From: a virus
DNA length: 64,000 nt
IMG/VR virus record: IMGVR_UViG_3300035180_002574
Location: 1-64,000 of that record
Direction: 5' to 3' (one strand)
The translations under genes were made by a program, and so were the position numbers. Below, piece by piece: positions 4,132 through 17,161 of this stretch (within the stretch, counting starts at the first letter, position 1; the number at the start of each line of letters is the position of its first letter). Under the pieces are notes generated by a model. That model was not told the origin of the DNA, did no database searches, and saw only the letters and a program-made list of their open reading frames with translations.

Positions 4132-4245
4132 ATTCGCCTCCCTTTGGTCATTTGATTCGGCGCAGTTTCAAGCCGCCGCCCGCTCAATTGCGTTCTTGAG
4201 CCGGAGAACACCAGCATCGTAGAAGATAGTGAGGCGAATATCAAG

Positions 4246-4509
4246 CTATCGCCTCTTTAGCAGTTGCTCTGGTATCCAAGCCCCGCGGGGACCACGTACG
4301 CAAGTGTCTATATACTTGCGCTTGTTCTTCTTGATCTTGCGAGCCGCGCTTTTCTTTTCCGTTGGTTGCGCCCCATGTGGCATCTTGTCGATCGATTGTC
4401 GATCGATGGAAGAGACGTGCGGATGCCGGCAACTCATCGTTTGCCGTCCTAGACACTGAACCATGGTGGGTTCGCATACATGAAGGAACCCAAAACCAAA
4501 TTTACTCAA
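4246..4509 (-). CDS. Small basic hypothetical protein (may start at ATG 4383, just after the repeat motif)
   Basis: ORF track; motif pair at 4385-4409 precedes ATG 4383. Confidence 0.4.
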   Translation of the reverse strand: MSKFGFGFLHVCEPTMVQCLGRQTMSCRHPHVSSIDRQSIDKMPHGAQPTEKKSAARKIKKNKRKYIDTCVRGPRGAWIPEQLLKRR

Positions 4510-4931
4510 TCATGTTATTGGCTCGGAGACTGAAGTGACTGCGCATTCCATGCTCATTCACGCCAATAATCAAGTGATCGAGCAACTGAAGATCCACATG
4601 CCTTGCCGCTTGCGCAACCCTCCGGGTAAGGATAATGTCGTTGCCCGAGGGATGGTTGTGCGCGAGAATGAACCCGCGCGCACCCATTAGCAAAATTGGG
4701 CGAAGCACACCACGCAGCAGACTCCGAACCAATGGCGACAATGGTAACGCCCAGGGCTCGATTCCTGGCATCCAATCCAATGGCGAGCAAATGCTCGCGA
4801 TCGGGCGTACCAATCAGCTCATGCACCAATGCCGCTGATGCTTCGGAGTCGTGCAGGTTCGCGCTTGGAATCATAACAGAACCATCACGAACCAGTTGGA
4901 CCTTCTGAATCGGAACGCGATATCCGCTCAT
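4502..4931 (-). pseudogene. radC: RadC-like JAB-domain gene, frameshifted and internally deleted
   Basis: DREHLLAIGLDARNR in one frame; LAHNHPSG and LLDHLIIG in another; the usual PSxxD segment is missing. Confidence 0.85.
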
Positions 4932-4937
4932 GTGCCC

Positions 4938-5078
4938 TCACTTGAGTTTGAGAATCGCCTCGCGCATCTTCGGATCCATGTGAGGATTCGTTTGCGCCGC
5001 TTCCTTCATGGCTTCCAATGCCTTCTTGCGATTGGCATTGATATTCTCGATGATTGCCCTGCGCTCGTCTGCGGTCAT
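4938..5078 (-). CDS. 46-aa helical hypothetical protein
   Basis: Manual translation MTADERRAIIENINANRKKALE; AGAGG RBS right after the motif copy at 5088. Confidence 0.55.
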   Translation of the reverse strand: MTADERRAIIENINANRKKALEAMKEAAQTNPHMDPKMREAILKLK

Positions 5079-5321
5079 TCAACCTCTTTGTCGATCGATG
5101 GGAACCGGATATGCCACCTTGCGATTGCTCTTATAGCACGCAAGTTGCGTGTCGCTATTCCAACCCGTGCGGGTGAATAGCTCTCCGCTCACGTCCACCA
5201 CTTCGGGCAACGACTTGTAATGGTCGTAATCCCTACACTCCACTTCGATGATGTTCTCGCCTTCGATGCTGACGTAAGACAACACCGCGATGAGTTGCGT
5301 GGCTTTGGCTTGCATGTTCAT
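5079..5321 (-). CDS. Hypothetical protein
   Basis: ORF track; ATGA overlap with the upstream gene. Confidence 0.65.
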   Translation of the reverse strand: MNMQAKATQLIAVLSYVSIEGENIIEVECRDYDHYKSLPEVVDVSGELFTRTGWNSDTQLACYKSNRKVAYPVPIDRQRG

Positions 5322-5647
5322 GCCCCCGGCTGATCGATCGATGGGCTCGATGCCATCCGATTCTTGGCGATATCCGCAAGCTGACCCACGTACTTGAGTG
5401 ACATGGTTCTAGCGCGAGCGAGATGCCGTCCGCTCAGATGCTTTCCTTCCAAGATCCATCGGGCATAATACGAACCCAAGCTCGCATCCGCGCCCGAGAA
5501 TCCTCGACCATTGGAATGTCTGGTGGTTTTCGTGGCTTGCTCATCCGCGGTTTGACACGCATAGATGGCAAGGATCGCACGCTCCACCGCATCGTCCCGT
5601 TGCATCAACAACCATTGAATGTATGCAGGATCGCTCTTGTCAATCAT
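5318..5647 (-). CDS. Conserved-type phage hypothetical protein (QTADEQ...NGRGFSGADA)
   Basis: Recognisable motif pattern of a common large-phage hypothetical family; GAGG RBS. Confidence 0.7.
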   Translation of the reverse strand: MIDKSDPAYIQWLLMQRDDAVERAILAIYACQTADEQATKTTRHSNGRGFSGADASLGSYYARWILEGKHLSGRHLARARTMSLKYVGQLADIAKNRMASSPSIDQPGA

Positions 5648-5734
5648 GCTCTCACCCTCGCTTGTCGATCGATGGGTCCGTTCGTAGCAGGGATTCGCTT
5701 TGCATTCACCAGAGGTTACTAAAGCGTTTCCCAG

Positions 5735-5812
5735 ATCGCCTAGTAGGAATCGAACCTACCTCGTCTCCATGCTCTCAGACATGGGCAGCCACCCAGGGTA
5801 TTCTCTAGACGA
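5735..5812 (-). ncRNA. tRNA-like RNA 1 (intact acceptor and T arms; non-canonical D and anticodon arms)
   Basis: Acceptor TCGTCTA/TAGGCGA; T arm GTAGG-TTCGATT-CCTAC; stem CCATG/CATGG with an 8-nt loop. Confidence 0.7.
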
Positions 5813-5880
5813 AACTCCCCGTTCACAACACTCAAGGTTTGTCACGAAATCAAGCACGGGGACACACTCCGAAATCGCGG

Positions 5881-5952
5881 ATCGCCTAGCAGGACTCGAA
5901 CCTGCACCTACCTACGCCAATGCGCTCGCTCTACCAGTTGAGCTATAGGCGA
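5881..5952 (-). ncRNA. tRNA-like RNA 2 (canonical acceptor, D and T arms; anticodon stem does not pair canonically)
   Basis: TCGCCTA-TA-GCTC-AACTGGTA-GAGC...GCAGG-TTCGAGT-CCTGC-TAGGCGA. Confidence 0.8.
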
Positions 5953-6214
5953 AACATCCCCTATGGGGAATCAGCTATGCTGTCTCCGTTCAACCACGGA
6001 TGGGCGCGAATCCTTATGGGCGATTCATTGCTGCCCTGGATTCGCCAGCGAATCACACCCGCCTCTACTTATACTTTGCTTTGTATAAGGAACCGTTCGG
6101 TTCGTTTTGCTTGCTTTTCAAGAGAGGCTTGTCGATCGATGGGAACCGGGGAACCGACCGAAGCCGGCTCCCCAATCCCCTAACCGATCACTGAACGAAT
6201 CTCGCTTCGCTCGA

Positions 6215-6625
6215 TTACTTCTTGGCAGCCTTCTCCGCCTCGATGCGGGCACGAAGACCCACACCGCCGCCCTTGCCCTTGCCGATGAGGAACTTCGAGC
6301 TGGGACGCTCCTGCGTCCCGTCCTCCGCGATCTCGCCCTGCGCATTGTCGCGAATGTAGCTGTGGATGCGATCCGAGAGAACCTTGTGGTTCTCGGGCTG
6401 TGCATTCATCTTGACCAGCGTCATCGTGATGAGCGCCGGAACATTCATCTTGACCAGCGCCGGATATGCATCAAAGACCGCATCCACCGCATTCGCGATG
6501 GTCTGAGTCTCCACCTCACGCTCCGAGGCATACTTGACCAGCTCCGCCTCAAACCGAGAACAGGTCTCCGCGAAGTTGAGAGAACCGTCCGCATACCGAA
6601 CCAGGAAGGGAACCACATTGCTCAT
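6215..6625 (-). CDS. Hypothetical protein, first gene after a promoter module
   Basis: ORF track; AAGG RBS; strongly GC3-biased codons. Confidence 0.75.
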   Translation of the reverse strand: MSNVVPFLVRYADGSLNFAETCSRFEAELVKYASEREVETQTIANAVDAVFDAYPALVKMNVPALITMTLVKMNAQPENHKVLSDRIHSYIRDNAQGEIAEDGTQERPSSKFLIGKGKGGGVGLRARIEAEKAAKK

Positions 6626-7219
6626 TGTTATACCTTACTTTCCGAATGCCCTTTGGGGCTTCTATTACCACGAACCATTGGAACCTTTCGGGTTCCAAGA
6701 TACTTCCCATTCCAACCCCGGAAACCGGGAGAAGGTGAGTCGTATCTAACGTATCCAAGCTGCTTGGCACCTTCAATGATGCCCCGCCTTGTCGATCGAT
6801 GGAATGCGTCAACTGCCCGCTTTGTCTTCCCAAGATGCCAGAGAGCGTTGTCGCCCTCCCAAGTTTCAAGTCTCTTGTCGATCGATGGAGCCTTGCCGCC
6901 AACGTTGCGCCGCGTCATTCGCTCACCGTCGCATTCCCGCGCCGCATTGTAGATCGATGGAATCCATCGACTTGCATCGCGCCGCGCGCCTTCACGCTCG
7001 CTTTGCTCCCTTCGCCCGCATTGTCGATCGATGGACATTCATCGTCAACGGAATCGGGAATCGAGCGAACCGTCAACCAGCGTTCACAACGCGCACCGCT
7101 TGCGTTTCCGCTACACCGTGTCGCGTCGCTTGCTGCGATTGTGTCTCATATTGTCGATCGATGGTAACCCGGCGCCCGTTGCATGTAAGGTATCGCGCGC
7201 GCGCAAAAGGATTACCCTC

Positions 7220-7240
7220 TATTAGCACGTCCCGCGCCAC
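7220..7240 (-). promoter_or_regulatory. sigma54-type -24/-12 promoter P1
   Basis: TGGCGCGGGACGTGCTAATA, GG-N10-GC. Confidence 0.7.
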
Positions 7241-7287
7241 GCCACATTACAATCTCACTGGAATCATAAACCTGGTATGTTGTTCGC

Positions 7288-7308
7288 TATTAGCACGTTC
7301 CGTGCCAA
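7288..7308 (-). promoter_or_regulatory. sigma54-type promoter P2
   Basis: TTGGCACGGAACGTGCTAATA. Confidence 0.8.
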
Positions 7309-7409
7309 GCACGATTAGCAAAACCCACATGCACCTACATCCGGGTAGAAAAATACAATATCCCTATAAAAACCCATAGGGGAGGGAAATGGGTAAATGC
7401 GTCCGGCGC

Positions 7410-7439
7410 AAAAATCCGCCCCGGAAAGGGGTGGATTTT
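7410..7439 (-). terminator. Intrinsic terminator hairpin
   Basis: AAAATCCACCCC-TTTCC-GGGGCGGATTTTT on the minus strand, downstream of the gene ending at 7551. Confidence 0.75.
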
Positions 7440-7471
7440 GCGTTATCCGTTGGTATGTTTGGGATTGGGTC

Positions 7472-7498
7472 CCCCACCAGCCATCATGGCTGATGGGG
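7472..7498. other. Strong hairpin in the 3' region of the 7551 gene
   Basis: CCCCA-CCAGCCAT-C-ATGGCTGA-TGGGG. Confidence 0.55.
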
Positions 7499-7550
7499 AA
7501 TGAACCGCGCGTGAATCCAAGCGTCCGAAAACGATTCGGATGCCGCCACC

Positions 7551-7976
7551 CTACGTGGGAAGGGTCCAGATACCGTTGCGCTTCCTAACACCAAGCGTAC
7601 CAGCGATGGTGTCGATGCTTTTCGCCAAGCCGACCGAAGTCTTGTAACCAAAGGATTCGCGCATTGCCGTCACTTGCTCGATGACGTCGAGGCGACTCAT
7701 GGCGCCTTTGGATAGGACTTGACCCACACAGGCGCGAATGGAACCGCCATTGAATGGACGCCCACGAGGGCGACTGGATTCGGTCTCGAACAACTCCACT
7801 TCATCAGAGTTGATCTTTTCGGCAAGCTCATCCAGCTTTGCCTTCTCTTCCTCGCTCAGATTTTCCTGAATCTCCTCGATGCGCTTGTCGATCGACGGGC
7901 GCATGATCGTGTGCCCGTGTCGAAGGAGGGCGAGAACGAGGGAATCGCTGGGATTATCGAGGACGATGACTCGCAC
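7551..7976 (-). CDS. Hypothetical protein, possible C-terminal winged-helix domain
   Basis: ORF track; GGAG RBS; helical C-terminus ending in a beta-hairpin (VRKRNGIWTL). Confidence 0.65.
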   Translation of the reverse strand: MRVIVLDNPSDSLVLALLRHGHTIMRPSIDKRIEEIQENLSEEEKAKLDELAEKINSDEVELFETESSRPRGRPFNGGSIRACVGQVLSKGAMSRLDVIEQVTAMRESFGYKTSVGLAKSIDTIAGTLGVRKRNGIWTLPT

Positions 7977-8037
7977 GTCTCCACCTCTTTACCTTGCTGG
8001 CAGAGTGACCAATCACGAGAACTCTCATGCGCATTAG

Positions 8038-8117
8038 TTCGTCTAATGGGAATCGAACCCATATTTCCGATTGTGATGTCGGCGTCCTTCCGCAAGGCTC
8101 TCTTAGACGATAGACGA
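8038..8117 (-). ncRNA. tRNA-like RNA 3 (enlarged D loop; 4-bp anticodon stem with an 8-nt loop)
   Basis: TCGTCTA/TAGACGA; ATGGG-TTCGATT-CCCAT; CCGA-CATCACAA-TCGG. Confidence 0.75.
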
Positions 8118-8140
8118 AACTCAGATATTCCGAACTTGTA

Positions 8141-8560
8141 TCAGACGGAGATCTTCTCCGTCTTTCGCCACTTTTCGAGCGCGTTCTTGGTGGCGCGCAC
8201 CGTCGCGGTCGAACCATGACCACGCCGGGTGACGAATCCCCCGCGAGCCAGCTTGGTGCAGGCGCTCGACACGTCGGATTCACTGTAGGCGTTCTTGAAC
8301 CGACCGTTCAAGTGATCGGTGAGATCCTGCGTGCTCACACCCTCGGCTCCGAATCGGAGAACGGCGAGCAGGGTCAGCTCGCATCGCTTCTTGAGCCCCA
8401 GGCTCACCTCGATGCGGTCACCCCTGCGAACCAGCTTGGAATCATGGCGATTGAACGTGACGCTCTTGCGGAAACGGATGCTCATGCGGAACCTTCGCTT
8501 TCCGACCCCACAACATGGGGTCAAGGGGTCATTCCAGAACTCTTCGATTGCTTGCCTCAT
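8141..8560 (-). CDS. Winged-helix DNA-binding protein
   Basis: LLAVLRFGAEGVSTQDLTDHL...SESDVSSACTKLARGGFVTRR is a typical wHTH pattern. Confidence 0.75.
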   Translation of the reverse strand: MRQAIEEFWNDPLTPCCGVGKRRFRMSIRFRKSVTFNRHDSKLVRRGDRIEVSLGLKKRCELTLLAVLRFGAEGVSTQDLTDHLNGRFKNAYSESDVSSACTKLARGGFVTRRGHGSTATVRATKNALEKWRKTEKISV

Positions 8561-8638
8561 GCTTGTCGATCGATGGAACCGAGGACCGGGCTCGATTGCC
8601 CGGTCCCCAATCCCAATCAGATCACGGAACGAACATGT

Positions 8639-8845
8639 TCAGGGCTTACCCGCCCATGCAAGAATGGCGGATAGCGTATCCATGCTCACCTGCACAGATT
8701 GACCATTCTGCTCGATGCGGAGAACCTTTGCGTTCTTCTGAGTCGAAAGGGGATGAGGATTGCTCATCACCACTTCGACCATCGGAGTGTCCTCGTTCCC
8801 GCCCGTGAACAAACACTGCTCGCCCAGCGGCTTGAAAACCTGCAT
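8639..8845 (-). CDS. Hypothetical protein
   Basis: ORF track; GGAG RBS. Confidence 0.6.
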   Translation of the reverse strand: MQVFKPLGEQCLFTGGNEDTPMVEVVMSNPHPLSTQKNAKVLRIEQNGQSVQVSMDTLSAILAWAGKP

Positions 8846-8933
8846 TGTCAGACTCCGAGTTTGAAGGTTGTAAACGTGGATAGGGGCGATGTTGATCGAT
8901 GGGAACCTTGACGATCACTTACTCGATTCTTGG

Positions 8934-9119
8934 TCAATCACCATCCGCATCCATGGATGCTTCGATGGCATCACGCTCGGCGGCGTGCCGATCGCCCTTG
9001 CGCTCCTTGTGCGGACCACCAGACTTGCATCTGCGGAGATCTTCGTAGGTATCGAAGCTGCGCCCCTTGATCTCTTTCACCTTGGAATTACCGCCGATCT
9101 TTTTGAACGACTTACCCAT
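8934..9119 (-). CDS. Small basic hypothetical protein
   Basis: ORF track; GAGG RBS. Confidence 0.6.
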   Translation of the reverse strand: MGKSFKKIGGNSKVKEIKGRSFDTYEDLRRCKSGGPHKERKGDRHAAERDAIEASMDADGD

Positions 9120-9155
9120 GACCCTCGTTCCTCCGCTTGTCGATTCGCAACTCTT

Positions 9156-9386
9156 CTACCCATTCGTAACGATGTGCCTCGTCATTCCAGACGACAAGGA
9201 GACGGGAACCCAGGTTCCCTTGACGGGCTTGCGCAGGTTGGCGAACATGGGCGGAAGGGGCTTGAGAATCGCAAACCCTCGGCAATAGGCGTGCTGCGAG
9301 TGCGGAGCCGCATTGGACTTCTGTCCGCACTTGGAACACACGCACGGTTCCACCTTGACGCCCGCCGACTTCTTGCTCTTCGCCAT
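9156..9386 (-). CDS. Small Cys/His-rich (zinc-finger-like) protein
   Basis: Start reassigned to ATG 9386 after motif plus GAGG; CVCSKC...H..C. Confidence 0.6.
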   Translation of the reverse strand: MAKSKKSAGVKVEPCVCSKCGQKSNAAPHSQHAYCRGFAILKPLPPMFANLRKPVKGTWVPVSLSSGMTRHIVTNG

Positions 9387-9515
9387 CTTGAACCTCTTGT
9401 CGATTGATGGATCACGCTTGGCGCGATGATTACCATTATAACTGTCGAACCACACCTTTCCATACCAAAACCTTTTCGGTATGGAATATGAGTTATGAGT
9501 TTCGTTCGCGGGCGT

Positions 9516-10148
9516 TCAGCCGCGCGAAAACTTGGCGGCGTCTTGCTTGACCTTGACTCCGAACCCCAAGCCACCACTGGTGCCAACCTTGACGGTCTTG
9601 TGGACCGCCATGCGGGGAGCCCGCAGAAGTCGCTTCATGGACTCATCGCGTGAGACGATTCGCACGGGATTCAGCTTCTCGGGACAGAGAAGCCAAGTGA
9701 TGCTTCCGTGCCAATTGGGCGCGCCGTCAACGAGCTGACGGTCGACCCACCGCTCCGCATCTTGGGGCATGTCGAAGTCGGCAATCAACTCTTTCATGTC
9801 ACCAGAATCGGTGACATGAAACTGGACTCTGCCCAGCTCGTCGAGAATCTGAGCAACGTATGCTTTGGGCTCCTTCTCTTCCTTGGGGAGAAGGAATCGC
9901 TCAGCCTTAGATTGATCCTGAAGCATGATATGAGACCAGACCGCAGACTGAATCTCAGTCAAGGCAGGAGTCGGCATCAGAGCACCACTGTCCACCATGT
10001 GAACAATGGGCGACGTCAGAGGAGCCAACTCCCCGGTCGTGAGGTAAGCGCGATGCGCTTCGATGAAGCCGATTGCCGACTTCGCGGTGGACAACTTGCG
10101 CAAGAACCCCTTAGGGGTCATCTTGCGTTCTTTCTTGGCTTCCGTCAT
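9516..10148 (-). CDS. Hypothetical protein, first gene after a promoter module
   Basis: Start reassigned to ATG 10148 after motif 10163 plus GGAG. Confidence 0.75.
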   Translation of the reverse strand: MTEAKKERKMTPKGFLRKLSTAKSAIGFIEAHRAYLTTGELAPLTSPIVHMVDSGALMPTPALTEIQSAVWSHIMLQDQSKAERFLLPKEEKEPKAYVAQILDELGRVQFHVTDSGDMKELIADFDMPQDAERWVDRQLVDGAPNWHGSITWLLCPEKLNPVRIVSRDESMKRLLRAPRMAVHKTVKVGTSGGLGFGVKVKQDAAKFSRG

Positions 10149-10344
10149 AGCTTCGCTCCACCTTGCCGATCGATGGAATGCCGTCAAACCATTCGACGGC
10201 GCATCCCGTTTCGCTTTCCTGCTTTCGGTGCGCATTGTCGATCGATGGAACCACACCGCGTCTCACAATGTCGCACAATGAATCACGCCCCGTCGTTTCG
10301 CGTTTTCGCTCGGGGCATTCTCGCCACCGCTTGTCGATCGATGG

Positions 10345-10421
10345 AAGGCATCGCCGCTTGTAAGGCATCGCCGCTTGTAAGGCATCGCCGCTTGTAAGGC
10401 ATCGCCGCTTGTAAGGCATCC
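10345..10421. repeat. Tandem 17-mer (AAGGCATCGCCGCTTGT) x4 plus a partial copy
   Basis: Units start at 10345, 10362, 10379 and 10396. Confidence 0.95.
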
Positions 10422-10461
10422 TACATTATCCTACCTTGGTATCTATAAACTTGCGGATCTC

Positions 10462-10482
10462 TATTAGCAAACTTGGTGCCAA
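10462..10482 (-). promoter_or_regulatory. sigma54-type promoter P3
   Basis: TTGGCACCAAGTTTGCTAATA. Confidence 0.8.
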
Positions 10483-10531
10483 CTTCCCCTGCGCTCAATA
10501 TCCTACATTGTGTGTGAATGTAATAAAATGG

Positions 10532-10568
10532 ATGACTTGTCATCCCAAGCATGACTTGTCATCCCAAG
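10532..10568. repeat. 19-nt tandem duplication ATGACTTGTCATCCCAAG(C)
   Basis: Two adjacent copies. Confidence 0.9.
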
Positions 10569-10619
10569 TGAGATATGTCGGGGCGAGTAATCAAAGGTGG
10601 AAGGTGATCCGCGGAGCGT

Positions 10620-10640
10620 TATTAGCAAACGCCGTGCCAC
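10620..10640 (-). promoter_or_regulatory. sigma54-type promoter P4
   Basis: GTGGCACGGCGTTTGCTAATA, near-perfect consensus. Confidence 0.85.
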
Positions 10641-10744
10641 CTACCTGCACACATAAAAACGCAGGGTGTCGTACCTTTCCTTACTTTTAGGGTCTTTCTT
10701 ACCTTTCCCTTCCCTTCCGCCCCGCTTGCACTTGCCCAAGACAT

Positions 10745-10789
10745 AGCCTCGGCGGCTCCTAGATCATTGCTAGCGAAACCGCCGAGGCT
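10745..10789. other. 11-bp GC-rich inverted repeat (hairpin without a U-tract)
   Basis: AGCCTCGGCGG...CCGCCGAGGCT. Confidence 0.6.
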
Positions 10790-10971
10790 CCCACGCCTTT
10801 CTCAGTCACATAATATATATGTTCCCCTCCGCGCCCACGTGCCAATCGGGAGCAAAAGAGAGGCGACCGCTAGGGCGTCCTTTGCGGGCATCACCCGCAC
10901 GTCAATACGGTGGATCTTGCATTATTGCCCCGCAATATCTAGGTGAGGTTACTTGTCGATCGATGGGATGG

Positions 10972-11298
10972 CTAGTTGAGCTTGCTGCCCAGGAAGGGGA
11001 CGGGATCCGACGACGGATGCGCCTGCGCCGTGGAGACGAGCTTGTAGACGCGCACGGCGTCGGCGACGCACTCACCCTTGATGATCTTGATCTCGACTTC
11101 GTTCCTGGCGTTGCTGATGGCGGCGCTGTAGGCGGCGCGGATGTTCGGGGGCAACTGCGGCTCGAACTTGTCGAAGACGCTGGCGACAAGTTCGAGACGC
11201 CGCTCCTCGAACGCGTTCATGAGCGGACGCAACTCGGAGCCCGCCTGTTGGCACGCTTCGTAGATTTCCTTGAGAACCTTGGAGACGTTCATGTTCAT
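10972..11298 (-). CDS. Hypothetical protein
   Basis: Start reassigned to ATG 11298 (GGAGG RBS after motif 11313). Confidence 0.7.
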   Translation of the reverse strand: MNMNVSKVLKEIYEACQQAGSELRPLMNAFEERRLELVASVFDKFEPQLPPNIRAAYSAAISNARNEVEIKIIKGECVADAVRVYKLVSTAQAHPSSDPVPFLGSKLN

Positions 11299-11332
11299 AC
11301 CTCCGAACTTCTGTGTCGATCGCTGGTAACTT

Positions 11333-11584
11333 CTAGAGGAGAACGGTCTCCTGGTTGGGGTGCGCGGGACTGGATGAATAGACCTTATCCAGACGATAGC
11401 CGTGCGCCTCGCACCACTTCTCGATAGACTGGAACGTGACCACGTAACCATGGAAGGGCTCGTCACCCTTGAACAGCAGAACCTCGTGACGCATGAGTTT
11501 GGGCGCGCCTCCCTTGGGCGCCGCCATAAACTCGGTTTCGGCGTCGAAGATGGAACGGAACGTGATTTCGACCATTGATGACAC
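11333..11584 (-). CDS. Hypothetical protein
   Basis: ORF track; GAGGT RBS. Confidence 0.7.
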   Translation of the reverse strand: MSSMVEITFRSIFDAETEFMAAPKGGAPKLMRHEVLLFKGDEPFHGYVVTFQSIEKWCEAHGYRLDKVYSSSPAHPNQETVLL

Positions 11585-11612
11585 CTCTTACAACACCCCA
11601 CTATCTCATGCG

Positions 11613-11873
11613 CTAGACGTCCTTGAGAGGCGCTTGATACTGGTCCTTGTTCCACTTGCGCAGGGACGCGTCTTCGATGGCTTCCTTCGACTCCTCGATG
11701 CCTGCGCCGGTGCGGTCGCGAAACTCCTTGATGCGCTGGATCTTGTTCTCGTAGACGGGAAACCTGCTACCCTTGGCGCAGGCATCGCGCGGCGGGGGAC
11801 CGAGCTTGTCGTCCTTGACCAGCTCGTCTGCGATAGCATCCCATTCGCTCCTGTCGATGAACATCTTGAACAT
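11613..11873 (-). CDS. Ribosomal protein L7/L12 C-terminal-domain-like protein
   Basis: NKIQRIKEFRDRTGAGIEESKEAIE matches the K..IK..R..TG.GL.EAK..VE helix-turn-helix of the bL12 CTD; the EF-Ts N-terminal domain is similar. Confidence 0.6.
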   Translation of the reverse strand: MFKMFIDRSEWDAIADELVKDDKLGPPPRDACAKGSRFPVYENKIQRIKEFRDRTGAGIEESKEAIEDASLRKWNKDQYQAPLKDV

Positions 11874-11921
11874 TAGTACCTCTTACTGTGTTGTCGATCG
11901 GTTGTCGATCGATGGAAGACT

Positions 11922-12131
11922 TTAGAAGACCGCCCGCTCCTCCACCTTGTAGGAGGTGATGACGACCTCGACCTTGGCGTCACCCACCACGCTGCCACCC
12001 TTGGCATGGTTCTTGGTCATGGCGAAGTGAGTGGCGGCGCCAATCGAGGCGAAGCCCTTGATGTCACGCCGAGTCAACTTGCCCGTGGCGGTATCGAACG
12101 TGAGGGCGGTAACGACGAACTTGGTGCCCAT
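11922..12131 (-). CDS. Hypothetical protein
   Basis: Start reassigned to ATG 12131 (GGAGG RBS). Confidence 0.7.
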   Translation of the reverse strand: MGTKFVVTALTFDTATGKLTRRDIKGFASIGAATHFAMTKNHAKGGSVVGDAKVEVVITSYKVEERAVF

Positions 12132-12397
12132 GTATGTTACCTCCGACTTGAGGCTTGACTTCAATAGAAGGATGGCAGCTTTCACGCCTTAGCTGCCCTG
12201 TAGCGCCTTTGCGACCCGGACGTTTTCCGTCAGTGCGCTATCAGCATCGCTCACATTCTCGCCTTTCATTGTCGATCGATGGCAGCCGTCGCTTTTTTTG
12301 TTTTCGTTCCCTGCCCTCGCCTTTCATTGTCGATCGATGGTGGACCGCCGCCGCACGTTCCTTATTATACGCGGCGACGACCACACCACACGCCCTT

Positions 12398-12418
12398 TAT
12401 TAGCAACGCGCGTACCAA
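12398..12418 (-). promoter_or_regulatory. sigma54-type promoter P5
   Basis: TTGGTACGCGCGTTGCTAATA. Confidence 0.75.
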
Positions 12419-12525
12419 CCACAATGTAATCAGGAATATATCGGGGGAAACGTGCCAGATAAGCGTCGGGCGCCCTAAACCACCTTCACTCACCGTGTGG
12501 ACAGATGCTTACATGTAGGATAAAC

Positions 12526-12564
12526 GACGAAAGCCCGCTCGCTTTTCAGCGGCGGGCTTTCGTC
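12526..12564 (-). terminator. Terminator-like hairpin
   Basis: 13-bp stem GACGAAAGCCCGC/GCGGGCTTTCGTC just after the stop at 12573. Confidence 0.75.
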
Positions 12565-12572
12565 CGTCAGTA

Positions 12573-13217
12573 TCAGTAGGCGTTGCTTGCGTCGTCGAGC
12601 TGGCGCGCCTGCGCCAGCAGCTTGTTCGCGAGCGTCACGTTACCCTCCTTGTCCGCCTTGCTGGCGGCGTCGAGCAGGACGCGCTGCTTCGCCTTCATGT
12701 CGGCGACCAGGCGCCGAGCGGGCGCGGGCATACCGGCAACGTAACCGGCAACCGTGGGCGAGAGACGCGGCGCCTTCCCCTCGCCCGGGTTTGGATCGAG
12801 GGTGAGACGGGCGCGGCGAGTCGCCGCCGCGAGCGCGGTCCCCAGGTCGTCGACCTTGAAGCCGCAGCACTGGAGCAGAAGAATGGTGTCGTGACGCACT
12901 TCGTGCGGATTCTTGAACGTGACGGGCTTCCGCTTCAGGTTGACAGCGGGCGCCCCGGTCACTGGATCGATGGCTTGACGAACGCCAACCATCGACGCGA
13001 GCCTGAGAAACTCCACCGCGTCGTTCGTCTCGTTCAAATCGAGCACCACGCCCACCGTCTCATGCGGAATGACCTTGGCGCTCGCCGCGCCGGCAACGCG
13101 CTCCACCTTGGGAGCCTTGACCGCCTTGACCGTTCGCGACGTATCGTCCAGCTTCGGGTCTTCGACCAAGCTGGAAACGGTGCCAGTCGCATCGGAGAGG
13201 AGAGAGGAAAAGTCCAT
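12573..13217 (-). CDS. Ala-rich hypothetical protein, first gene of the GC-rich block
   Basis: ORF track; GAGG RBS; very high GC3. Confidence 0.75.
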   Translation of the reverse strand: MDFSSLLSDATGTVSSLVEDPKLDDTSRTVKAVKAPKVERVAGAASAKVIPHETVGVVLDLNETNDAVEFLRLASMVGVRQAIDPVTGAPAVNLKRKPVTFKNPHEVRHDTILLLQCCGFKVDDLGTALAAATRRARLTLDPNPGEGKAPRLSPTVAGYVAGMPAPARRLVADMKAKQRVLLDAASKADKEGNVTLANKLLAQARQLDDASNAY

Positions 13218-13462
13218 TGAAAACCTCTTAGGGTTTGGGTTCGGGCGGAGCTTGCGCCCCGCGATGAATTCCCTTGCCTTTCGCGCCGTCCGCCAGTAGT
13301 AGGGGCGAGAACTTTGTCTCGCTGCACCTTGGAATCACCTTGCCGATCGATGGTACCTGGTTTCCCCCTCCCACTTCGGTTCGTTCCCTTTTTCGTTCCC
13401 TGTCTCAGCCTTCCATTGCCGATCGATGGGAGACCGGATTCCAGTCGGGACGGAACCGGCGC

Positions 13463-14039: not shown

Positions 14040-15744
14040 GTAAAAATATTAAAAATATTAATCGTTTTATTTTCCGAATTAGTTTAGAGAATATGATATT
14101 GAGGCGTCCACATTTTTGAGATGATTGAAAGGCATAAGTTAGTGAGGCTTATCTGGTTTAGTGAAGCTTATCTGGTTCTTAGGTTGAAGAGAAGTTAAAC
14201 GGAATATTAATTTGTACGGTATTTTGGAAATGCATAACATATTTTATTTTACAATATTTACAATTGATCCAGATGCCATAGACATTATCGGTGATATTTT
14301 GTAGTTAGGGAGCCAGATTATAATTGTTCAGGTTTCATGAGAATATGAGATAAGTTTTCATTTTATGTTTAAGTTCTGGGGGTGTCATATTAAGAAATTT
14401 ATTAGCGTGATCATTATCTTTACCGAAGAAGGAGATTTTGTATAACCGAGATCTTCAGCCAGAGAGATGTTGGATATGGTGATAATATATTCCACGAATC
14501 ATTTGGGTCATCAATTTTGTGGGGGAGAGGGGTTACAATTGTAGCAATTGATAATCATGGGGCGGGTGGCGTCATGCAAGGATTTTGGCAATAAAGATTT
14601 TTGCAATACGGGAAGCCAGCAAGGAACTTTCTTTAGGTAAGTTATAAATTTTATTAATATGAATTTTATTAAGGGGATATGATCGAGGGCTATATTATGG
14701 AGGTTGTAGAAAAGCGATGGAGAGGCAGGAGCCATCTTGTTCTCCGATGGAGATGGCTAACCATTGATTTGTGTTTTCAATTGATTTGTGTTTTCATGGG
14801 ATATTGGACCTGACAATATAGACGGCTTCGAGATCTTCATTGCGGGGCATTTGGAATATCATTTAGGCAGAACCAGCGAGGAATAGATTTGGGAATCGAG
14901 GAAGATCATATGAATGGGAGGAGTGGACAGGAGATTGAAGGAGATTGAAGGAGATTGAGGCGGGAGATATCGAGGGATTGTTTTTGAAAATTAAGACGAA
15001 TTTCGATAACATTTGATTTGGTTGTCATTTATTGGGGAGATGAGGTGGGGGTTTCCACATTTTTGGCAATGGAGCATTTGATTTTATTGCAAAGCCGGCA
15101 TTGAATATTCATGAGGGCGCGAGATAAGTTTTGATTTTTGTGGATTTTATCCGGGGACCAAGTTCGGGCGTTGTGTTAGTTTAACTTTATTATTGGGCGG
15201 GGACCATAGGAGAGCGGAGGGGGTTTAAGCAAATTGATAAATTGGTCCCGGGGGTTTTGGTTCCATAATAAACGACGATCTTTTGAAAAGATCGGAGGGT
15301 GGATTGATGATTTGTGGTGTCGCAAGTATATTTGGCAATAATAATAAATGATTTCCCATGTAATCAGTCTTGCAGATTGTGGAATTATTTTATTACAAAA
15401 CCAGCAGGTGATTTGCTTGGGCGGAGCATTTAGATCATAGGAAAGGGATTAATTTCTTTAATTTATTGGAAATTTGATCTTTATTGAGATGGGGGCAAGA
15501 TTATTTTTTCCGATTTGATTATGTGTGGAGATAATTAGCTGATTGGAATGCGGGAGAAATCCGAGGTATAAATTTTTGAAATAAAAATCGGATATTTGTT
15601 CGGGATGATTGCGATCATAGAAATAGGCATTATAGGCAGAGGAGCAGTCATTGCATATTGGCATGGAGAATGATTGGTGGCATCTCCATGTTGATTGCGG
15701 ACCAAATTAATTTCTTTATTGCAGAGCCAACAAGCGGGAATCAT
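14040..15744 (-). pseudogene. Chain of decayed CxxC / C-terminal-FS family genes
   Basis: Relic ends KHKMKTYLIFS* (14335), LLPFI* (14906), TKIKTYLAPS* (15109), NKLKKLIPFL* (15435); relic starts CYNCN, CRLCNK, CWFCNK, CWLCNK; linked by ATGA overlaps. Confidence 0.75.
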
Positions 15745-16789: not shown

Positions 16790-17161
16790 TTATAAAAATG
16801 GCATAAGTCTTTTAACTTGATTTCTAATTAATTTTAGATCTTTGAGAACAAAAGAGAATGGAATGTTAATTACATTATGATTAATTCCTGAAAAGGTTCC
16901 AATATAAGTCTTATTTTCTTTTAAGTTTGCTAAAACGTAAAGATTATCTTTTATATAGATTTCAAAATAATTTAGAACCCAATTAATTTTATCTGTTTTG
17001 ACGGAATAACCAACCTGGCAATTATGGCAGTAGGCGAACCAACCCTGGATTGGTGGATTTTGAACATATGGACTTTTGTTATTTACAAAATCAATAAGAA
17101 AAGCGCCTTCTTGATGGAGGCTTGGTATTTCTTTATTGCAATAAAAACAGGTTGGTTTCAT
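16790..17161 (-). CDS. CxxC family protein, tail NQVKRLMPFL
   Basis: CFYC and CHNC. Confidence 0.75.
   Translation of the reverse strand: MKPTCFYCNKEIPSLHQEGAFLIDFVNNKSPYVQNPPIQGWFAYCHNCQVGYSVKTDKINWVLNYFEIYIKDNLYVLANLKENKTYIGTFSGINHNVINIPFSFVLKDLKLIRNQVKRLMPFL

Follow-up and report, generated by a model that had tools for sequence, protein, structure and literature searches.

Why would a phage carry several transfer RNA (tRNA)-like genes that share one acceptor stem and offer no anticodon loop that decoding could use? This question is raised by three elements, here called E1, E2 and E3, in a 64-kb stretch of viral DNA (the window), which is the first part of the 181-kb IMG/VR record IMGVR_UViG_3300035180_002574 (G000; CheckV completeness 42%). 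The tRNA genes of phages are generally taken to serve codon supply or to act against defences, and non-decoding tRNA look-alikes, known since T4 RNA C and RNA D, are still unexplained. We propose, with a probability of about 0.5, that E1–E3 are tRNA-derived non-decoding RNAs whose top half (acceptor and T arm) is under selection, and which are probably processed, punctuate transcripts and accumulate as stable RNAs. What is new here is a comparative signal, namely one conserved top half joined to arbitrary bottom halves, in several copies per genome and in unrelated phages. This signal makes 'broken tRNA' annotations a testable class.

Anatomy of the three elements

An earlier note, made from the letters of this DNA alone, had described three tRNA-like elements here with a common acceptor stem, perfect T arms and no encoded CCA. 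Direct reading bore this out and placed the RNA on the minus strand (Table 1). The 5' end of E3 is at 8110, and the seven nucleotides (nt) that precede it, 8117–8111, are a tandem copy of its 5' acceptor strand, so that two pairing registers are possible. The acceptor of E1, UCGUCUA/UAGGCGA, forms 7/7 pairs including one U-G pair (U4-G69), and those of E2 (UCGCCUA/UAGGCGA) and E3 (UCGUCUA/UAGACGA) are perfect helices of 7 base pairs (bp). Each T arm is also perfect: GUAGG-UUCGAUU-CCUAC in E1, with a 5-bp stem, GCAGG-UUCGAGU-CCUGC in E2, where AGGU precedes it, and AUGGG-UUCGAUU-CCCAU in E3, where AAAU precedes it. Acceptors therefore follow UCGYCUA/UAGRCGA and T loops UUCGAKU, with all 12 acceptor and T-stem pairs formed in every element. 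The leaders are GAGUU, AUGUU and GAGUU for E1, E2 and E3, respectively, GUU being common to all three, and none of the elements is followed by CCA. Their overall folding energies are ordinary (z = -0.4 to -1.9).

The bottom halves differ from one another. E2 has a canonical D arm, GCUC-AACUGGUA-GAGC, with U8, A14, G18, G19 and A21; UA precedes this arm and a single G follows it. The U8/A14/G18-G19 arrangement is absent from E1, which has G at position 8 and no D stem in the 21-nt stretch after UCGUCUA, and also from E3, which has A at position 8 and, in place of a D arm, a CCUU-GCGG-AAGG hairpin (4 bp, tetraloop) with AGAGAG before it and ACG after it. The anticodon arm of E1 is CCAUG-UCUGAGAG-CAUGG, a 5-bp stem with an 8-nt loop (U-C-UGAG-A-G) in which position 33 is C; AGACGAG lies between this arm and the T arm. 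In E3 the arm is CCGA-CAUCACAA-UCGG, a 4-bp stem with an 8-nt loop (C-A-UCAC-A-A) in which position 33 is A. The corresponding region of E2, AGCGC-AUUGGCG-UAGGU, forms two of the five stem pairs in the canonical register and can fold alternatively as GCGC-AUUG-GCGU, with 4 bp and a tetraloop. None of the three thus has a canonical anticodon arm, that is, a 5-bp stem and a 7-nt loop with U33 and a purine at position 37. The claim of the earlier note that each anticodon arm is broken holds for E2, which is unpaired in the canonical register, but needs rewording for E1 and E3, whose stems are paired and whose loops are abnormal (8 nt, no standard U33).

Detector scores and chance level

Covariance-model scoring, which had been suggested as a check, separated the three elements. 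Against the Rfam tRNA model (RF00005, gathering threshold 29 bits), E2 scored 48.5 bits and was the sole element of the three to pass; E1 had no RF00005 match at E<=10, its best score being 17.8 bits to tRNA-Sec, below threshold, and E3 had no Rfam tRNA match at E<=10. ARAGORN with default settings reported E2 as 'tRNA-???', and with relaxed thresholds (-ps) it called all three elements, each with a 2-nt 'anticodon'. In its intron mode it also fused the first half of E2 with the second half of E1 into a 'tRNA-His with a 126-nt intron'. We rejected this call as an artefact of the common acceptor: pairing is poor in the anticodon stem that it implies, and a long variable arm is foreign to tRNA-His. 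The detectors found no further tRNA or tRNA-like genes in the 181-kb record, and neither ARAGORN nor Rfam found a transfer-messenger RNA in the window.

To set a chance level, we used our own scan for a perfect acceptor and T arm, which gave about 4 matches per 598 kb of shuffled sequence. Given this rate, three matches with the same acceptor within 2.4 kb exclude chance. As to ancestry, E2 matched only generic tRNAs of several identities among GenBank phage DNA, with a tRNA-Asn from Bacillus phage P59 at the top; Asn leads by a small margin only, and acceptors starting with U1 are found in phage tRNA-Asn, Ile, Gln and Arg.

Relatives in other phages

Relatives were gathered with the 136-amino-acid (aa) gene upstream of E2 and E1 as anchor, which gave about 30 loci. 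The proteins P0002–P0005 are 57–78% identical to its product, and in other megaphage contigs homologues of this gene often have a tRNA or a tRNA-like top half downstream on the same strand. In 278 kb of related loci, T-arm motifs numbered 39 on the gene strand versus 2 on the opposite strand, and 11 such motifs, in 8 of the 30 loci, lay within 1 kb downstream of the homologue.

Closest among the collected loci is L022 (55% protein identity to the 136-aa product). Its element L022a (733–805) lies 228 nt downstream of the homologue on the same strand and scores 36.9 bits with Rfam. It has the acceptor UCAUCUA/UAGAUGA, a canonical D arm and a T stem identical to that of E1, and where the anticodon arm would be it has a long stem capped by a tetraloop. 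The same locus holds L022b, 58 nt long and with a reduced bottom half; its 5' strand and the stop codon ahead of it overlap. In L016 the corresponding position is taken by an element of 63 nt that lacks an anticodon arm (33.8 bits), and in L024 and L038 by 40–43-nt stubs of acceptor and T arm. L018 and L023 have ordinary tRNAs at similar spots, and some other loci have nothing.

Scans of IMG/VR for the 3'-end pattern of the family led to a further record, L059 (IMGVR_UViG_3300033074_001157), which carries T4-like portal and dUTPase genes. Three tandem tRNA-like genes, L059_1 to L059_3, lie at 1323–1556 of this contig; their acceptors are UCGUCUG, UCAUCUA and UCAUCUA, their leaders GGUU, AUGUU and AUGUU, and two of the three have the T stem of E3 (AUGGG/CCCAU). 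The anticodon loops read AAAUAAG, UCCGAUA and GCUCGCG, with U33 in none. Because the shared T stem, the leader, the tandem paralogues and the dead loops are unforced coincidences, L059_1–3 are likely homologous to E1–E3 on this sequence evidence. Against GenBank phage DNA, the array matched only in short tRNA pieces. Neither five related megaphage records nor the Cloacimonadota metagenome-assembled genome that holds L057 contained the 3' pattern. According to the earlier note, normal tRNAs at these loci in related phages, with substitutions spread evenly over the arms and no processed RNA, would refute its interpretation; the family members in L022 and L059 turned out to be non-decoding as well.

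Several observations were made beside these results. After the tandem array, at L059:1673-1812, lies a tRNA with an insert of about 45 nt that ARAGORN calls an intron, and in L098 (IMGVR_UViG_3300037067_012186), at about 4230–4315, a tRNA-Arg(UCU)-like gene has about 15 extra nt immediately after the anticodon loop on the 3' side. The 40-nt stub at L024:6944-6987 is followed directly by ACCA, and the 136-aa gene's homologue in that locus lies 620 nt upstream of it. In L016, two paralogous tRNA-like elements (14715–14791 and 16989–17053) end in GAAGC-ACC and have broken or truncated anticodon arms; their acceptor differences are largely compensated (7/7 pairs in one and 6/7 in the other).

Evidence for selection on the acceptor and T arms

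We aligned seven members from three contigs (E1, E2, E3, L022a and L059_1–3) and counted the pairs in their acceptor and T stems. All 84 cells of the seven members by 12 pairs are intact. At six of the 12 pair positions (3-70, 4-69, 7-66, 49-65, 50-64 and 51-63) both sides have changed, whereas slid registers gave no both-side changes. The covariation score was 0.444, compared with 0.235 +/- 0.038 in shuffled alignments, and none of 500 shuffles reached this value. The covariation among homologues that the earlier note had called for is therefore present, and it is confined to the top half. Given that the elements and members were found partly through their intact acceptor and T arms, it is the covariation and the comparison across phages that carry weight here.

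The middle regions behaved differently. Top-half identity among members is 61–97%, whereas identity in the D/anticodon region is 40–64%, against 47 +/- 6% for shuffles; for L059_2 and L059_3, for instance, the two values are 97% and 49%. In a flexible search, D and anticodon stems paired no better than those of shuffled middle regions (P = 0.22 and 0.15), and no member has a usable anticodon loop (U33-NNN-R37 in a 7-nt loop). Between E2 and L022a, the element is conserved with z = 4.9, and the intergenic flanks give z = 1.6 and -1.0. The family consensus consists of the acceptor UCRYCUR/YAGRYGA, a 5-bp T stem, a UUCRANU loop and a U-rich GUU leader, with U at position -1 in all seven members. 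The acceptor pairs U1-A72, C2-G71, C5-G68 and U6-A67 are invariant, and the discriminator is not fixed (U, U, A, G, A, A, A).

E1 and E3 have changed heavily, having lost the D stem and U8, and neutral decay at this level would be expected to break pairs in the top half as well. This supports the conclusion that selection maintains the top half and leaves the bottom half unconstrained. Such selection had been suggested beforehand, and it agrees with the 84 intact pairs, with the six compensated positions, with middle regions at shuffled identity and with relatives that delete the bottom half only.

Genomic context

Features of the locus are collected in Table 1. The first 13,500 bases of the window have a guanine-plus-cytosine (GC) content of 50–60%, compared with about 29–43% in the remainder and 37% in the whole record. 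This block is dense in small minus-strand open reading frames (ORFs) with no assigned function, and searches of Pfam and PHROGs found no function for those scanned. The block does not look like an assembly artefact or chimera and is probably real, because homologues of the 136-aa gene sit within contiguous megaphage contigs of 350–500 kb. One of these relatives, L016, has a comparable local GC-rich island around its homologue. The DNA of window positions 5000–9000 had no match among GenBank phages.

Table 1. Features of the E1–E3 locus and of related records
Feature	Position	Strand	Description
E1	5812->5735	minus	77-nt tRNA-like element plus discriminator U
E2	5952->5881	minus	71-nt tRNA-like gene plus discriminator U
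E3	8110->8038	minus	72-nt tRNA-like element plus discriminator A
Second UCGUCUA	8111..8117	minus	Tandem copy of the E3 5' acceptor strand
139-aa ORF	8141..8560	minus	Directly upstream of E3; GC at third codon positions 0.76; no family match
141-aa ORF	7551..7976	minus	Directly downstream of E3; no family match; terminator-like hairpins after it
136-aa ORF	6215..6625	minus	Upstream of E2/E1; C-terminal GKGKGGGV motif conserved
109-aa ORF (phrog_21015)	5318..5647	minus	Downstream of E1
14-bp motif CCATCGATCGACAA, copy	6129..6142	minus	177 nt upstream of E2
14-bp motif CCATCGATCGACAA, copy	5662..5675	minus	Between E1 and the next ORF
TROVE/Ro60-like ORF	G001:29311-30069
TROVE/Ro60-like ORF	G002:35980-36699
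TROVE/Ro60-like ORF	G003:100007-100765

E1–E3 are co-oriented with the surrounding small genes and are most likely co-transcribed with these phage neighbours. E3 lies about 30 nt past the stop codon of the upstream ORF and 61 nt ahead of the next start codon, and no terminator or promoter consensus was found between the two flanking ORFs. Scans of IMG/VR with both of these ORFs gave no match. The 14-bp motif CCATCGATCGACAA occurs in 26 copies (<=2 mismatches) within 4385–13429 of the window, all in a single orientation (minus-strand reading), where about 0.4 would be expected by chance. Many copies lie 10–30 nt upstream of start codons or are arrayed within intergenic gaps, and the copy upstream of E2 may be a promoter or RNA site of an E2–E1 unit. 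Paired copies of the motif, sought across IMG/VR, gave no match. The variable middle regions of the elements showed no significant complementarity to the rest of the genome.

The AlphaFold model of the 136-aa protein is confident (predicted local distance difference test score, pLDDT, 85.9), and its PDB matches are only weak and winged-helix-like. Its family has an invariant GKGKGGG near the C terminus. The gene itself contains an exact 18-nt direct repeat (6403–6420 and 6442–6459; 39 nt from start to start). In a 448-kb megaphage, the homologue at L019:10001-10363 has one in-frame stop under translation table 11, which may be a sign of an alternative genetic code.

Possible processing of the elements

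How might a phage use RNAs that cannot decode? What the elements conserve is the minimal substrate of ribonuclease (RNase) P, RNase Z and the CCA-adding enzyme: a 12-bp coaxial helix of acceptor and T stems, the T loop, a U at -1, which bacterial RNase P favours, and a free 3' end that does not encode CCA. Since RNase P, the CCA-adding enzyme and either RNase Z or 3' exonucleases recognise this upper part of a tRNA, cleavage by tRNA-processing enzymes appears the likeliest use of the elements. We suggest that they would be transcribed together with the small phage genes on the same strand, and that host RNase P, with RNase Z or 3' exonucleases, would cut them out of the transcript. Excision would define the ends of the neighbouring mRNAs, that is, act as punctuation, and could release stable CCA-tailed RNAs of about 72–78 nt that are unable to enter decoding. 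The D/anticodon half would meanwhile be at liberty to drift, to be remodelled or to be lost.

Judged by anatomy, a processing signal fits best among the three functions proposed in the earlier note. The anticodon-nuclease decoy that it also suggested is disfavoured, in that all seven loops are unlike a genuine anticodon loop, and the idea of a synthetase or EF-Tu sink found no support in view of the variable discriminator.

Several points weigh against the processing reading. A strong hairpin and a CCATCGATCGACAA copy separate E2 and E1 from the upstream gene, so the two may form a transcription unit of their own and not punctuate an mRNA. RNase P needs shape and not sequence, and therefore processing leaves unexplained why four of the seven acceptor pairs, together with the leader, are invariant across unrelated phages. 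The evidence for the family has its own weaknesses: it consists of only seven sequences from three contigs, the members were found partly by searching for intact top halves, and the L024 and L038 stubs are each near chance level individually. In addition, isoacceptor tRNAs resemble each other in a similar manner (top identity 0.9–0.97, middle 0.44–0.58), so that descent from an earlier set of isoacceptors could account for part of the contrast between top and bottom.

Conservation of the acceptor sequence and of the leader hints at an additional, sequence-specific partner. Carried further, this leads to a speculation that we consider decidedly doubtful: E1–E3, L022a and L059_1–3 might together form a class of small RNA not yet described in phages, a naturally occurring 'tRNA scaffold' spread across unrelated lineages. 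Its constant top half (UGUU leader, acceptor UCRYCUR and T arm) would ensure processing, CCA addition and stability, and would either present a freely variable cargo or act as a decoy for host enzymes or toxins that read acceptor ends of the U1-A72 type.

Alternative explanations

The elements might instead be functionless, as decaying tRNA pseudogenes or recombination scars left when ordinary phage tRNA genes, perhaps once a set of isoacceptors, were disrupted through crossovers and small indels as their cluster degenerated. Some details would suit this well. The E1 acceptor is a hybrid, with a 5' strand like that of E3 and a 3' strand like that of E2, which gives the U4-G69 pair; the anticodon-stem strands of E2 are mismatched, as expected of a crossover within the loop; and the 5' acceptor strand of E3 is tandemly duplicated. 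Related megaphages also have long tRNA arrays that trail off into low-scoring tRNA-like matches, normal tRNAs occur at similar spots in L018 and L023, and isoacceptor pairs likewise share top halves. However, decay does not readily account for the absence of a single broken top-half pair and for the compensation at six positions in a family where E1 and E3 retain neither D stem nor U8. It would also have to explain why an unrelated phage (L059) shows this same non-decoding design and why the element is kept between E2 and L022a while their flanks are randomised. We therefore regard decay as unlikely, while giving it real weight. The main functional alternative is a decoy or sponge for something that reads acceptor ends: CCA-tailed RNAs could soak up defence enzymes, such as toxic small alarmone synthetases (toxSAS, e.g. 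CapRel and FaRel2), MenT/AbiE-type nucleotidyltransferases or acceptor-stem tRNases, or else a phage enzyme. There are toxins of defence systems that probe the acceptor stem (PMC11559606, PMC10435456), and there is precedent for phage tRNAs that counteract defences aimed at tRNAs (PMC11555353). Conservation of acceptor sequence and leader beyond mere pairing in unrelated phages, and the several copies per genome, would agree with such a role, and RNAs that do not decode would leave translation undisturbed. Yet Pfam and PHROGs searches of the island ORFs identified no partner gene beside the elements, the discriminator is variable although such enzymes usually read it, and the idea is wholly inferential, so we rate it as rather improbable. 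If it were true, it would indicate host factors that read tRNA acceptor ends.

The remaining candidates fare worse. A partnership with a phage Ro60 (TROVE) protein, in which the elements would be Y-RNA-like tRNA mimics, seems very improbable. TROVE-like ORFs of 534–583 aa lie a few kb from tRNA arrays in the related megaphages G001–G003 (the records of L016, L017 and L019), and one array contains a weak full-length YrlA-like match (G002:45921-46030). On the other hand, the best YrlA scores among E1–E3 are 11.3 and 11.0 bits against a cut-off of 69, and only on the T and D arms of E2; the ends of the elements lie in the acceptor stem, with no Ro-binding helix; and a TROVE gene is missing from the 181-kb record, whose completeness is 42%. 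Functional tRNAs with enlarged anticodon loops, serving in quadruplet decoding or frameshift suppression, are brought to mind by the paired anticodon stems and 8-nt loops of E1 and E3, but the anatomy comes close to refuting them. The layout Y32-U33-NNNN-R37 is absent, position 33 being C in E1 and A in E3, both of which also lack the D stem and U8. In E2, L022a and the L059 members, the loop is either a tetraloop or one of 7 nt that lacks U33, and a single acceptor combined with unrelated 'anticodons' would make no sense for tRNA identity. Already contradicted is the notion that these are attachment-site (att) remnants, left by an integrating element with a tRNA gene as its target. The 3' parts of the elements do form a 29-nt repeat family, and the 13.5-kb block is compositionally foreign (GC 50–60% versus about 35% in the rest of the window). 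Every copy, however, has both acceptor strands, the T stems differ by compensated changes and are not identical repeats, and the 20 island ORFs scanned gave neither an integrase match nor any Pfam family above cut-off.

Comparison with known systems

Among phage RNAs, the nearest parallels to E1–E3 are found in T4, whose RNAC and RNAD were confirmed by Northern blot and described as 'RNAs of yet unknown functions' (PMC9697503). Like these, and like the tRNA-like stable RNAs of T5, the elements are phage-encoded, tRNA-related and non-decoding, and lie among tRNA or small-ORF regions. T4 RNA C and RNA D are longer, about 120–140 nt, and have extra domains, whereas E1–E3 are of tRNA length and form a paralogous family with one common acceptor stem; the latter are known here from sequence, and the likeness is one of description only.

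Two bacterial cases are also similar in part. The YrlA Y RNAs (RF02553; PMC4201824) are non-decoding tRNA mimics with T and D arms, but YrlA ends in a Ro60-binding helix and its acceptor-like stem is closed, while the acceptor ends of E1–E3 are open. The tRNA-Other of Bacillus cereus (PMC3399842) is a tRNA-shaped gene that is non-translational and regulatory and has a phenotype. Unlike E1–E3, it is chromosomal, single-copy and of a different lineage, and this likeness too is by description only.

The processing reading that we favour corresponds most directly to the t-elements and tRNA punctuation of plant mitochondria, which are cleavage signals for RNase P and RNase Z that define mRNA ends (PMC1920247). 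The biological system is a different one, cleavage has been mapped for t-elements and is predicted here, and E2 and E1 may have a transcription unit of their own. Nevertheless, t-elements are likewise non-decoding tRNA-like structures of acceptor and T arm that adjoin ORFs, and the same arrangement is found here on the strand that carries the genes, E3 lying between two ORFs and L022b over a stop codon. If E1–E3 are indeed processing signals, they would represent mitochondrion-style tRNA punctuation in a phage.

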